Assembly: GCF_006345805.1 (NCBI RefSeq) | Contig: NC_043026.1 | Coordinates: forward strand, 8,556,001-8,620,000 | Length of the DNA stretch: 64,000 nucleotides | Direction of reading: 5' to 3' | Source of the DNA: Octopus sinensis | Lineage: Eukaryota | In this document: in pieces, positions 1 to 53,186 of the stretch | How the letters are laid out: each line of letters begins with the position of its first letter | Numbering within the stretch: position 1 is the stretch's first letter | Notes under the pieces: model-generated | The model's input: only the letters and a program-made list of their open reading frames with translations | Told to the model about the DNA's origin: nothing | Databases searched by the model: none | Program-made: the position numbers and the translations under genes

Positions 1-1068
1 TTCCCGTCACTTAGCAGTTCGGCATAAGGGACCGATAGAATAAGTACTGGGCTTACAAAGAATAAGTCCCGGGGTCGATTTGCTCGACTAAAAGGCAGTG
101 CTCCAGCATGGCCGCAGTCAAAATGACTGAAACAAGTAACAGAGAAAAGAAGTAGAAACACAAAGTAAGGATCGACTAGTCATGCCTAGCTAGTGCGGAT
201 GCGCGCACCGGGACCACTGTCGTCAAGTAGCACCCAATAAAATATCTCTCTGTCTATCTACTGTCTGCCTTATCTCTGTATTTATGTATCTATCTCTTTA
301 TCTTTCTATCTTTAACCTTTCACTCCATTAACTCTCTTTCTTTTTAATGTTATCGAATTCTCGTTTAAGTCTCGTCCGCAAACACGAGATTTAATATTTG
401 CTGCGGAATTAGAATCTCGCCAGATCAAAATGGTGTAGAAATAAAGAAGAAATTTTTTTAGAAATCATAAAACGTGAATTTTCTCCCGTTTGAATCTTTC
501 TTTCATCCGATCCATCTCAGAAATTATAAAACGTGAGCTTTCTTCCCGTTCCAGCTCTTCCTTTATCAAATACATCTTCTCAGAAATTATCTGTAAGTGT
601 TTTTAACCCAAAATTTATGATTTTTCCTTTTTTTTCTCAATTATTTAATATGAAAACAATTCTTGTTTCTCTCTTCAATGCCCAATTTTCTGGGTTTTTT
701 TCTTTTTACATCGTAATCCTTTCGTGGCCCTCTCGCCTTTGGTGCGGATCTTAAACTGCGACTTCATTCTTCATTCAAGCCTTTTTCTTTATAATGTTTT
801 CGTTTGTCAAAGAATTTGTAGCAACCCAGAAGACACGTTTTTGATCATCGTTCGTCTACTCAGGCAGGATCGTCCTGTGGCTACAAAATCTCCGTTGAAG
901 CCGCTACAAGGTTGCTCCACCAGCTAGAGACAGCACCCAAATTTACCCTCAAATGACCCCTTTCGATTTTTGAAAATATGTTATCATCTGCTCTGTAGAG
1001 TAACACGTAGTTTTACACAGTACGGAGGTGTAGATGTCTGTAAATATGTCGATATTTACACAAAATAA

Positions 1069-1477
1069 GGCGGCGAGCTGGCAGAATCGTTAGCACGCCG
1101 GGCGAAATGCGTAGCCGTATTTCGTCTGTCTATACGTTCCGAGTTCAAATTCCGTCGAGGTCGACTTTGCCTTTCATCCTTTCGGGGTCGATAAATTAAG
1201 TACCAGTTACGCACTGGGGTCGATGTAATCGACTTAATCCCTTTGTCCTTGTTTGTCCCCTCTGTGTTTCGCCCCTTGTGGGTAGTAAAGAAATAGGTAT
1301 TTCGTCTGCCGTTACGTTCCGAGTTCAAATTCCGCCGAGGTCGACTTTGCCTTTCATCCTTTCGGGGTCGATAAATTAAGTACCAGTCACGCACTGGGGT
1401 CGATGTAATCGACTTTAATCTCTTTGTCCTTGTTTGTCCCCACTGTGTTTAGCCCCTTGTGGGTAGTAAAAAAAATA
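1069..1477 (+). mobile_element. tRNA-derived SINE family B (Meta/Sauria-like core), dimeric; other copies or arrays at 17705-18290, 19065-19245, 29630-30012, 30096-31016, 31480-32270, 44980-45270, 51625-51852, 52580-52989 and 56280-56530
   Basis: A box TGGCAGAATCGTT, B box GAGTTCAAATTC, core GCCTTTCATCCTTTCGGGGTCGATAAA; 14-bp TSD GATATTTACACAAA at 1051-1064 and 1478-1491. Confidence 0.88.
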
Positions 1478-49540: not shown

Positions 49541-50761
49541 TCATTCTGCTGCAAGGGTGCACTCATGTGTAGTCAGCTGTCGTTTTCGAACAAAAGATTT
49601 ACTGCAGACATCACAGTGATATGGTTTCTCTCCTGTATGAATGTATTTGTGTTCAGTTAAATGGAAATTTCTAGAGAAGGCTTTATTGCAGACCTCACAG
49701 CGATATGGCTTCTCCCCTGTATGGGTTTGTTTGTGTTCAATCAAAGTATGTTTCCGAGAGAAGGATTTACCACAGATATCACAGTGGTATGGTTTAGCGT
49801 CTGTATGAATGCGTTTGTGTCTGATCAAATGCTGACTGTGAGAGAAGGATTTGCCACAGATATCACAGTGATATGGTTTATCTCCTGCATGAATGCGTTT
49901 GTGTCCAGTTAAGTGACCTTTCTGAGAGAAGCACTTACCACACACATCACAGCTATGGGGCTTCTCCCCCGTATGGATGCGGATGTGTTTACTCAAGCTG
50001 CTGCTTGTAGAAAACGATTTGTCACAGATATCACAATTGTAGGGTTTCTCTCCAGTATGACTACGTCTGTGTTTGCTCAGGTTGCTACTCGTAGAAAAGG
50101 ATTTAGTACAGATATCACAGTGATAGGGCCTGTCTCCTGTATGAGTGCGACTGTGTTCGGCTAAGTAATGATGCCGAGAGAAGGATTTATCACAGATATC
50201 ACAGTGATATGGCTTAACTCCTGTATGGATTTGCTTGTGAACACTTAAGCTACTTCTTTCAGAGAATGCTATGCCACACATGTCACACTGATACGGCTTC
50301 TCTCCTGTATGAATTCGTATGTGAATGGTCAAAGTACTTTTCAAAGTGAACGATTTACCACAGATGTCACAATCGAATAGCTTCTCTCCTGTATGAATAC
50401 GTATGTGAGTCGTTAGGTTCCTAGTTCTGGAGAAGGACTTACCACAGATATCACAGTGATATGGCTTCTCTCCTGTGTGAACGAATTTGTGTTCGTTTAA
50501 ATGATGATTCCGAGAGAACGACCTACCGCAGACATCGCAATGATATGGCTTCTCTCCTGTATGAATACGCCTGTGTTTGGTTAAGTGATGGTTTATAGAG
50601 AAAGATTTACCACAGACATCACAGCGATAGGGTTTTTCTCCTGTATGAATGCGTCTGTGTTGGATTAAGTGACAAGTTTGAGAAAAGGATTTACTACAGA
50701 TATCACATTGATATGGCTTCTCTTCTCCACGAATGAGTTGACCTTTTTCACAGAATGACAT
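49541..50761 (-). CDS. C2H2 zinc-finger protein, 406 aa, inverted copy of 2368..3588
   Basis: Translation identical to 2368..3588 except H46R. Confidence 0.93.
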   Translation of the reverse strand: MSFCEKGQLIRGEEKPYQCDICSKSFSQTCHLIQHRRIHTGEKPYRCDVCGKSFSINHHLTKHRRIHTGEKPYHCDVCGRSFSRNHHLNEHKFVHTGEKPYHCDICGKSFSRTRNLTTHIRIHTGEKLFDCDICGKSFTLKSTLTIHIRIHTGEKPYQCDMCGIAFSERSSLSVHKQIHTGVKPYHCDICDKSFSRHHYLAEHSRTHTGDRPYHCDICTKSFSTSSNLSKHRRSHTGEKPYNCDICDKSFSTSSSLSKHIRIHTGEKPHSCDVCGKCFSQKGHLTGHKRIHAGDKPYHCDICGKSFSHSQHLIRHKRIHTDAKPYHCDICGKSFSRKHTLIEHKQTHTGEKPYRCEVCNKAFSRNFHLTEHKYIHTGEKPYHCDVCSKSFVRKRQLTTHECTLAAE

Positions 50762-53186
50762 TTTACAGATATTACAGTGATATATTGTTTTGCCAATATC
50801 TTTTCACATTTCATCAGGAAAATCAATCCATGGTCATTTTCATTTCACCTTGTCACCTTTTTTTTTTTTTTCTTTTCTCCAATGTTTTCGTTTCTGTATA
50901 TTTTTATATTTTATTCTAAACAAAAATTTTCTCCACTATATTCCTATCATCTGTAATCTTTCTTAAGATCTGCAGCCGCTCCAAACTCTGCTATAATCCA
51001 ATTTTAACTAGAATTCGGAACCCTCTTGTACACATCGCAGTCAGCGAAGCAAAAGACATTTTACTTTTTTAATTTCGGTGAAGAGAAAATATTTTATAGT
51101 CCAACCCATGCTAGCATGGAAAACGGACGTTAAATGATGATGATGATGATTTTCAAGTAATTCTACCACGTAAAATGCACTCAAATCTTTCTGCAGGGTG
51201 GTTGGTGTTGGAAGGACACCCAACCGTAAAGAATCATGCAAAAACACACACACAAGTTTGGTGTAGTCTTCTGGACGGCCAGCTCCTATGAAACGGGCTA
51301 ACCCATGCCAGCTTGGAGAGCGGACGTTAAACGATGATAATGATTGGAATATCTGTTCTTTATCCCGTGCTGTTAATCTTTGGAAGATGATAAATCCGCG
51401 GTAATATATAATTCTTTAATAACAAAGTCATCCAATATCCTGAAATAAGAGGGAAACAGTATAAGCTGCGAAGGTTACTAAAACAATTGGTATTTGAGAA
51501 TGAGAACTTAACTCTTATACGTTCCTACACAGATCAGCTGTAGTTATAAGCATTTATCTGAACAACTGAAATTTCGTTTTGAAATTTGTTATTAAAATTA
51601 CATTGCACAAATTTGTGTAAATATCTATTTTTTTTACTACCCACAAGGGGCTAAACACAGAGGGGACAAACAAGGACATAGGTATTAAGTCGATTACATC
51701 GACCCCAGTGCGTAACTGGTACTTAATTTATCGACCCCGAAAGGATGAAAGGCAAAGTCGACCTCGCGGAATTTGAACTCGGAACGTATTGACAGACGAA
51801 ATACGGCTACGCATTTCGCCCGGCGTGCTAACGTTCCTGCCAGCTCGCCGCCTTATTTTGTGTAAATATCGACATATTTACAGACATCTACACCTCCGTA
51901 CTGTGTAAAACTACGTGTTACTCTACAGAGCAGATGATAACATATTTTCAAAAATCGAAAGGGTCATTTGAGGGTAAATTTGGGTGCTGTCTCTAGCTGG
52001 TGGAGCAACCTTGTAGCGGCTTCAACGGAGATTTTGTAGCCACAGGACGATCCTGCCTGAGTAGACGAACGATGATCAAAAACGTGTCTTCTGGGTTGCT
52101 ACAAATTCTTTGACAAGCAAAAACATTATAAAGAAAAAGGCTTGAATGAAAATGAAGTCGCAGTTTAAGATCCGCACCAAAGGCGAGAGGGCCACGAAAG
52201 GATTACGATGTAAAAAGAAAAAAAACCCCAGAAAAGTGGGCATTGAAGAGCGAAACGAGAATTGTTTTCATATTAAATAATTGAGAAAAAAAAGGAAAAA
52301 TCATAAATTTTGGGTTAAAAACACTTACAGATAATTTCTGAGAAGATGTATTTGATAAAGGAAGAGCTGGAACGGGAAGAAAGCTCACGTTTTATAATTT
52401 CTGAGATGGATCGGATGAAAGAAAGATTCAAACGGGAGAAAATTCACGTTTTATGATTTCTAAAAAAATTTCTCTTCATTTCTACACCATTTTGATCTGG
52501 CGAGATTCTAATTCCGCAGCAAATATTAAATCTCGTGTTTGCGGACGAGACTTAAACGAGAATTCGATGACATTTTTTTATTTCTTACTACCCACAAGGG
52601 GCTAAACACAGAGGGGACAAACAAGGACAAAGGGATTATGTCGATTACATCGACGCCAGTGCGTAACTGGTACTTAATTTATCGACCCTGAAAGGATGAC
52701 AGGTAAAGTCGACCTCGGCGGAATTTGAACTCACAACGTAGCGGCAGACAAAATACCCATTTCTTTACTACCCACAAGGGACTAAACATAGAGGGGACAA
52801 ACAAGGACAGACAAAGGGATTAAGTCGATTACATCGACCTCAGTGCGTAACTGGTACTTAATTTAATTGACCCCGAAAGGATGAAAGGCAATGTCGACCT
52901 CGGCGGAATTTGAACTCAGAACTTAACGGCAGACGAAATACTGCTAAGCATTTCGCCCGGCGTGCTAACGTTTCTGCCAGTTCGCCGCCCAGAAAGACAG
53001 ATCGACAGATATTGAAACGAAGGGAGATCGATAGACGGATAGAGAAATGGACAAGGACAGACCATAGATAAATGGATCGGTAAATTCTTTGCTTTGTGGC
53101 ACGATTCAACGGGAACCCAAATCCAACAATAAAATATTGAAAAACAACAGACAAACGAGGAAATGCCTTTAGGTTTTCAATATACG

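Follow-up and report, generated by a model that had tools for sequence, protein, structure and literature searches.

The window analysed here, a stretch of 64,000 nucleotides from Octopus sinensis, lies at the left edge of a C2H2 zinc-finger (ZNF) cluster of approximately 1 Mb, and holds genes with tandem C2H2 fingers and TGEKP-type linkers arranged in an array. Three of these (ZNF-A, ZNF-B and ZNF-C) are carried on the forward strand of a left arm (346..29753; 29.4 kb), two (ZNF-C' and ZNF-A') on the reverse strand of a right arm (36839..52574; 15.7 kb), and one, ZNF-D, in the spacer between them (29754..36838; 7,085 bp, of which 76% is high-copy sequence). The opposed strands of the two gene sets and a spacer of about 7 kb with a 422 aa ZNF had both been predicted, and both are borne out. 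ZNF-D (33959..35227, forward strand) encodes 422 aa from the Met at 33959, with 14 fingers; it is single copy, and neither a second genomic copy of its flank nor a match to its N-terminus was found. KRAB was absent from the Pfam matches of ZNF-D, which was the one gene of this group scanned.

Extent and divergence of the mirrored arms

Among 20-mers present exactly twice in the window, inverted pairs greatly outnumber direct ones (7,532 versus 1,055), and they trace a single anti-diagonal between 352/52568 and 29689/36899, their order being mirrored. The original prediction of five mirrored blocks forming a palindrome of some 52 kb was thus correct as to order, but overstated as to extent. Chaining resolves 13 collinear inverted blocks (a count that leaves out one SINE-only block outside the arms), and the paired sequence amounts to about 11.5 kb, so that less than half of the span still matches: 11,574 of 29,408 bases on the left (39%) and 11,195 of 15,736 on the right (71%). 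The longest block runs to 2,935 columns (2.9 kb) at 97% identity. Over 11,471 columns the arms differ by 246 substitutions (2.14%, indels being additional; 1.9% in unique sequence), with a transition/transversion ratio of 1.7. For the two blocks tested, the outer and the innermost, the sole full-length or near-full-length match in the genome is the opposite arm. Beyond 346 and 52574 only SINEs and simple repeats match; an apparent extension at 32390/53570 was discarded as a dispersed repeat with about 80 matches in the region. Segmental duplications are defined as sequences of more than 1 kb and more than 90% identity that are not transposable elements (TEs), and the paired sequence here exceeds both values, lies on opposite strands and is not a TE.

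The gene pairs and the unpaired gene

ZNF-A is the best preserved pair. The left copy (2326..3588, forward strand; 13 C2H2 fingers, 406 aa from the Met at 2368) and the right copy (49541..50803, reverse strand) are identical at 419 of 420 aa and in the DNA-contact fingerprints of all 13 fingers. They differ by eight synonymous changes and one non-synonymous change (pN/pS 0.03; Fisher p 1.6e-5), and purifying selection keeps both copies. Their synonymous divergence of 3.3% indicates that the pair is held by selection, and not homogenised. A CpG-rich, low-copy region at about 250-1250, upstream of the left copy, is possibly promoter-like. Among the 120 matches listed for full-length ZNF-A only generic ZNFs were found, at no more than 56% identity, and an orthologue search by exact look-up matched none of five.

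ZNF-B (12653..13672, forward strand; 339 aa, 10 fingers, with a 5' flank that has no second genomic copy) has no partner in the right arm. It lies within an 8.0 kb stretch unique to the left arm (7678..15693) that is flanked by two SINEs of the same orientation (7304-7677 and 15484-15891). The right arm retains the first SINE and only half of the second, joined at a (TA)n tract at about 46700-46735, and ZNF-B was apparently removed there by a deletion between the two SINEs.

The ZNF-C copies share 76% identity, with 11 fingers on the left (22526..23613, forward strand) and 19 on the right (40113..41846, reverse strand), where a 577 aa open frame belongs to the main family of the cluster. Near its start the left copy is one base shorter than the right and, as assembled, meets a stop six codons after the ATG; it may be either a pseudogene or a consensus error. 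Neither the left-only ZNF-B nor the divergence of this pair had been remarked upon previously. Upstream of the ZNF-C start, a tract of about 200 bp (22271..22480, forward strand) differs between the arms at 23 of 204 sites, each arm being nearer to other cluster paralogues than to its opposite. Seventeen informative sites join each arm to a different paralogue and the next 10 join the arms together, although this test is biased in that the two paralogues were chosen as best matches. Of all 91 paralogues, 29 are nearer to the left arm in this tract, and 57 to the right, than left and right are to one another; for the 121 bp scored immediately downstream the count is 0. The tract probably reflects ectopic conversion, and this clearest example suggests that third paralogues, and not the opposite arm, were the partners of the exchange.

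Repeats and other differences between the arms

The arms had been predicted to differ by point substitutions and by arm-specific TE insertions or deletions. This holds for two left-only elements: a 3' LINE fragment (16563..17243, forward strand), which we take to be CR1/L2-like, whose family copies are 95-96% identical and whose empty site is preserved in the right arm, and a young SINE (17439..17658, forward strand) with a 6 bp target-site duplication. Several other differences are instead repeat-bounded deletions or tracts shared with paralogues, and the proposal that all of them are TE insertions is ruled out by chimeric junctions and by a right-only stretch of 1 kb. The latter is contiguous in a cluster paralogue, and is therefore a deletion from the left arm. 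In the left arm, 5319..7052 (forward strand) is an older tandem copy of 3449-4667, with 58 private sites versus 10 and 12 over 1,182 columns, and the right arm is chimeric across it. A palindromic MITE-like element between 7-mer repeats (45464..45825) is present on the right only, for which insertion there and deletion from the left are both possible. Of six TE-like ORFs submitted to Pfam four had no match, and a GIY-YIG match fell below the cut-off. At the inner junction of the right arm (36815..36860, reverse strand), one SINE is cut short where its left-arm counterpart is complete; next come a local duplication of 18 nt and another, different SINE.

Origin of the inverted repeat

Whether the arms are two loci or two misjoined haplotypes deserves careful consideration, as the same contig holds duplicates of 335-378 kb with 0.3-2% substitutions and 86-98% of their length aligned, one of them with an inversion of about 80 kb. 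These look like uncollapsed haplotypes, and the assembly may over-duplicate at this contig as a result. The arm divergence of 1.9% in unique sequence falls inside their range. In one left block 1 bp gaps are overrepresented (14 versus 4, p 0.03), a sign of poor consensus, and the left ZNF-C holds error-like indels. Furthermore, ZNF arrays can vary strongly between alleles. One could thus envision two haplotypes that carry the unit at different positions and orientations on either side of ZNF-D, stitched together within the spacer. We regard such a mosaic as unlikely. The upstream, spacer and downstream flanks share only short dispersed-repeat matches (the longest 338 bp at at least 93% identity) and so are not allelic; with four non-homologous flanks, a mosaic would require two rearrangements or reciprocal loss. 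Of the marks of false duplication that were looked for, neither shared flanks nor a gap at a join was found, there being no N gaps in the window, in the 200 kb before it or in the 172 kb after it. In addition, structural change is frequent in the arms relative to point change: 11 such differences accompany 246 substitutions, whereas six further duplicate pairs of this contig have 24 for 2,559 (a ratio of 4.8, p 1.3e-4, which becomes 3.7, p 1e-3, when five pairs are used). Four unrelated flanks, the lack of a gap and a roughly 5-fold structural excess over haplotype-like pairs argue against a haplotype misjoin, and a fold-back read artefact would yield identical arms without arm-specific TEs. 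The differences between the arms also look biological, judging by the transition/transversion ratio, the preponderance of synonymous changes in ZNF-A and the SINE with its target-site duplication.

It is, in our estimation, fairly probable from these sequence features that the locus is a real inverted segmental duplication of a ZNF A-B-C unit at the edge of the C2H2 cluster, now decaying, and a by-product of cluster turnover. A template-switching event of repair or replication with SINE-rich ends likely placed an inverted copy of the A-B-C unit, probably the right arm, beyond ZNF-D; this is suggested by the inner right junction, with its cut SINE and its templated duplication of 18 nt. Gains and losses would then have followed in both arms. 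On the right, ZNF-B and a 1.5 kb stretch were probably lost through deletion between direct repeats, for which the chimeric junctions are the evidence; on the left, 1.0 kb and perhaps 0.36 kb would have been lost, and the LINE piece and the SINE gained. The ZNF-C copies, both of the large surrounding family, would have diverged by gain and loss of fingers and by exchange with third paralogues, which we infer from the tract to have proceeded by conversion. Patchy conversion from arm to arm may also have slowed point divergence, at about an even chance. Repeat-mediated deletion of the Alu-Alu type and template-switch duplication by FoSTeS/MMBIR are known processes. The chimeric repeats at deletion junctions and the short templated duplication at a breakpoint resemble their products, but at the 8 kb junction the SINE halves meet in a (TA)n tract with no clean homologous crossover, and the SINE families differ.

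Comparison with maintained palindromes

Large palindromes of mammalian sex chromosomes, which were offered as an analogy in the original prediction, are defined by arms of more than 8 kb and identity above 99% (PMC8327919). Inverted arms, a unique spacer and gene pairs are common to both; however, the arms here are unequal (29 versus 16 kb), are 97-98% identical and are paired in blocks of less than 3 kb, and the analogy does not hold. There is no sign of sex linkage at the locus, which lies on a sequence of 15.1 Mb; the coleoid Z is described as large and dense in LINEs (PMC10925132).

Active maintenance of an old palindrome through conversion between the arms, which would preserve the ZNF-A pair, would account for numerous large indels alongside few substitutions, and for perfect runs of 484, 358 and 319 bp. 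The flanks of the LINE are also suggestive: on one side the arms differ at 5 of 631 sites, and on the other at 7 of 196 (Fisher p 0.01). From the former flank 2.7 private changes of the LINE would be expected, versus the eight observed (p 0.006). Nevertheless, the LINE differs from its family majority at 15 of 671 sites, of which eight are private versus 6.2 expected (p 0.29), and its age gives no clear answer as to conversion. Clustering of substitutions was set aside as proof, as its dispersion (3.6) lies within the range of the controls (3.4-27) and so does not demonstrate arm-to-arm conversion. With the structural excess and the LINE flank on one side, and the dispersion control and private LINE count on the other, such conversion is plausible. 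Active maintenance as such is quite unlikely, given one gene lost, one diverged, the modest identity and short blocks, and the synonymous divergence of ZNF-A. An ordinary decaying inverted duplication is most likely.

Potential for double-stranded RNA

It had also been proposed that read-through of the arms could yield long dsRNA. This would require a single transcript that reads out of the left arm and across both the 7 kb spacer and ZNF-D, for which we find no support. Coleoids edit heavily, and most edited UTR sites overlap repeats (PMC9068888); ZNF-D (forward) and ZNF-C' (reverse) are convergent and 4.9 kb apart. However, the mirrored genes give same-sense mRNAs that are unable to pair, and the closest arm pair (340 bp) is separated by 7.1 kb and the next by 12-14 kb, while the window contains 20 local inverted alignments, in about eight places, within 2.5 kb of their partners. 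An inverted SINE pair 3' of ZNF-D (35352..36489; 223 bp, 90.6%, 468 bp apart) is a nearer candidate, and nearby inverted SINEs in general appear better dsRNA substrates than the arms. The available portions of PMC11263572 and PMC4053975 offer no usable distance cut-off for editing. It is very improbable that the palindrome functions to supply long dsRNA, whether to ADAR editing or to silencing of the ZNF genes, and we do not take the structure to be a dsRNA device.

Implications for C2H2 clusters

In a region of 1.26 Mb we observe 33 inverted and 69 direct duplication chains, with 59 ZNF ORF pieces on the forward and 67 on the reverse strand. The suggestion that inverted duplication drives expansion of the cluster is therefore retained as a modest contribution, the event described here having added two genes (ZNF-A' and ZNF-C'). 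The haplotype-like duplicates of some 340 kb may cause ZNF genes on this contig to be overcounted. Mammalian KRAB-ZNF clusters are likewise comparable as tandem and segmental poly-C2H2 expansions.

The locus is not a new kind of element. It shares with the coleoid C2H2 clusters described previously (PMC9068888, PMC12513265) clustered single-frame ZNFs, local duplication in both orientations, changes in finger number and repeat-bounded deletions; the difference is that here one inverted event is resolved with its junctions. That C2H2 genes have expanded in cephalopods is well established; how they did so receives little description in these two papers, whose main texts do not use the word "inverted" and mention conversion once, for protocadherins. 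Our literature search, which covered listings drawn mainly from openly accessible journals, turned up none that deals with this locus or with ZNF palindromes in cephalopods. The locus combines an inverted duplication with the loss of a gene between SINEs, and has one duplicate pair under purifying selection and another in exchange with paralogues. A tentative further reading is that the palindrome is older than its 2% divergence suggests, with the outlier ZNF-A and the unique flanks evened from arm to arm, and ZNF-C, which has about 90 close relatives nearby, pulled apart by cluster conversion and finger swapping. We think this possible, if doubtful. Were it true, the fate of a duplicate, conservation or diversification, would depend on cluster membership, and the locus would offer a tractable model for the acquisition of new DNA-binding arrays by the C2H2 repertoires of cephalopods.

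Results

Among 20-mers present exactly twice in the window, 7,532 are inverted and fall on one anti-diagonal, as against 1,055 in direct orientation. Chaining gave 14 blocks, of which one, a SINE-only block outside the arms, was removed; the remaining 13 run from 346/52574 to 29753/36839, and cover 39% of the left arm (346-29753) and 71% of the right (36839-52574). The mirrored inverted blocks of the original prediction, a ~52 kb degenerate palindrome organising a zinc-finger (ZNF) cluster, are thus real, but under half of the span is paired. The arms differ by 246 substitutions in 11,471 columns (ts/tv 1.7), distributed as 100/5,384 in unique sequence, 64/1,927 in SINEs, 73/2,897 in cluster-shared sequence and 9/1,263 in the ZNF-A frame. 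The outer and innermost blocks have no other match at length anywhere in the genome.

The C2H2 genes A, B and C of the left arm lie on the plus strand, as does D (422 aa) in the spacer (29754-36838), followed by C' and A' on the minus strand. A and A' share all but 1 of 420 residues and are separated by 8 synonymous changes and 1 non-synonymous change (pS 0.033, pN 0.001), and no second genomic copy of the flank of B or of D was found. C and C', with 11 and 19 fingers respectively, are 76% identical. On a tree of N-terminal DNA, which took 107 of 126 ORF pieces, they are sisters within the main family (support 92/92, below the tool's star), and A, B and D fall outside that family on long branches. 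Left C has a stop 6 codons past its ATG, which may be a consensus error, given that the adjoining left block has a surplus of 1 bp gaps (14 vs 4, p 0.03).

Upstream of C, at 22278-22475, 17 informative sites pair each arm with a different paralogue (donors picked as best hits), and the next 10 of 11 pair the arms with each other. When all 91 paralogues found were considered, the arms differed at 23 of 204 sites in this tract, with 29 paralogues closer to the left arm, and 57 closer to the right, than the arms are to one another; over the adjoining 121 bp that were scored downstream, the arms differ at 3 sites and no paralogue comes closer to either. Moreover, in two 200 bp windows the fingers of left C match a third gene at 93% identity, against 81-84% for C'. 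The resemblance of both regions to other paralogues supports sequence exchange between C and the cluster.

The 8 kb left-only stretch carrying B is bounded by two direct SINEs; at the corresponding site the right arm has the first SINE, then a (TA)n tract, and of the second SINE just the latter half together with its flank. The right arm most plausibly lost this stretch by deletion. Another left-only stretch, of 1.5 kb, is part of a tandem copy of greater age (58 private sites vs 10 and 12), and across this site the right arm passes from the sequence of copy 1 to that of copy 2, as expected of deletion. Conversely, 1 kb found only on the right is contiguous in one cluster paralogue, and was therefore lost from the left arm. 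The left arm has gained a SINE, flanked by a 6 bp TSD, and a fragment of a LINE; the LINE site is empty in two other genomic copies, which is the ancestral state. Two elements occur on the right arm alone, one MITE-like and the other a weak GIY-YIG fragment, through gain there or loss on the left. At its inner end the right arm carries a truncated version of a SINE that the left arm has whole, and then a local duplication of 18 nt. The outer end lies a short way upstream of the CpG-rich, low-copy region that precedes A and, on the right, adjoins a SINE tail. The right arm is accordingly the likely copy.

The analysis covered the window and its surroundings, 200 kb on the upstream side and 1 Mb on the downstream side (1.264 Mb of a 2.72 Gb assembly). 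ORF pieces carrying three or more C2H2 fingers number 126 (59 plus, 67 minus), and none lies upstream of the window; the mirrored locus is therefore the left edge of the cluster. Duplication chains of at least 2 kb number 33 inverted and 69 direct. At 8838000-8925000 of the contig lies a tandem array of ~12 kb units, each holding one head-to-head ZNF pair (a 346 aa, 11-finger gene on minus, one of variable length on plus). A non-coding element ~0.9 kb downstream of C-family frames (window 24325-25036 and 39119-39510) has 62 matches, every one on this contig, and contains, near 24976-24990, overlapping splice-donor-like motifs on both strands. Outside the arms, window 59470-60101 holds an isolated piece of the 5' exon region found in the C family (98.9% to 42073-42256), a segment near-identical across many paralogues. 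Window 61379-63416 (plus) encodes an LTR-retrotransposon pol, presumably Ty3/gypsy-like, in two overlapping ORFs that match Pfam RT and RNase H domains, with a broken frame between them. SINEs often consist of a half unit repeated in tandem, twice or more (window 13760-14101, 30093-31017, 46536-46916, 55234-55563).

Discussion

The locus is most likely an eroding inverted segmental duplication, really present, in a fast-turnover ZNF cluster. Judged from the assembled sequence, that the arms are a real duplication appears highly probable from several features: their flanks are non-homologous except for dispersed repeats, no gap occurs at the locus, and the arm differences look biological. Structural differences (11 per 246 substitutions) are also more frequent than among the six duplicate pairs compared elsewhere on the contig (24 per 2,559; ratio 4.8, p 1.3e-4), which again counts for a real duplication.

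This structural excess, along with the unequal differences on either side of the LINE (5/631 vs 7/196, p 0.01), suggests arm-to-arm conversion. Speaking against it, substitutions in the arms cluster no more strongly than in controls and the LINE carries 8 private changes, in line with the arm average (p 0.29); we regard such conversion as an evenly balanced possibility.

As to the suggestion that the palindrome might yield long dsRNA, the mRNAs of the mirrored genes are same-sense, and pairing of the arms in RNA would need read-through over the spacer and D to reach a block of 340 bp lying 7.1 kb off. Twenty inverted alignments (≥120 bp and ≥80%) have their partner no more than 2.5 kb off, with one such pair directly 3' of D. 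Squid editing in untranslated regions is described as overlapping repeats for the most part (PMC9068888).

X palindromes, as delimited in PMC8327919, have arms >8 kb with >99% identity, and the octopus arms fall short on both counts. Cephalopod C2H2 clusters have been described (PMC9068888, PMC12513265), the word "inverted" being absent from the main text of either, and the Z chromosome is reported as large and LINE-dense (PMC10925132). The papers listed by our literature searches included none on this locus.

What counts against a real duplication is found further along the contig, where 8.81-9.19 and 9.19-9.53 Mb are direct duplicates at an offset of 333-378 kb with 0.3-2% substitutions, between the only two N gaps of the region (8.792 and 9.534 Mb). 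Those of 335-378 kb align over 86-98% with 0.4-2.2% substitutions, overlapping the divergence of the arms. Within the duplicates, a block of ~80 kb is inverted from one copy to the other (8926000-9004000 vs 9257000-9343000, 1.25% substitutions), a candidate inversion polymorphism. Elsewhere in the region a second inverted duplication, its copies ~770 kb apart, ends near both gaps (8757000-8786000 vs 9504000-9534000). The direct duplicates look like haplotypes left uncollapsed, or may stem from a tandem duplication of very recent date, and they would inflate ZNF counts.
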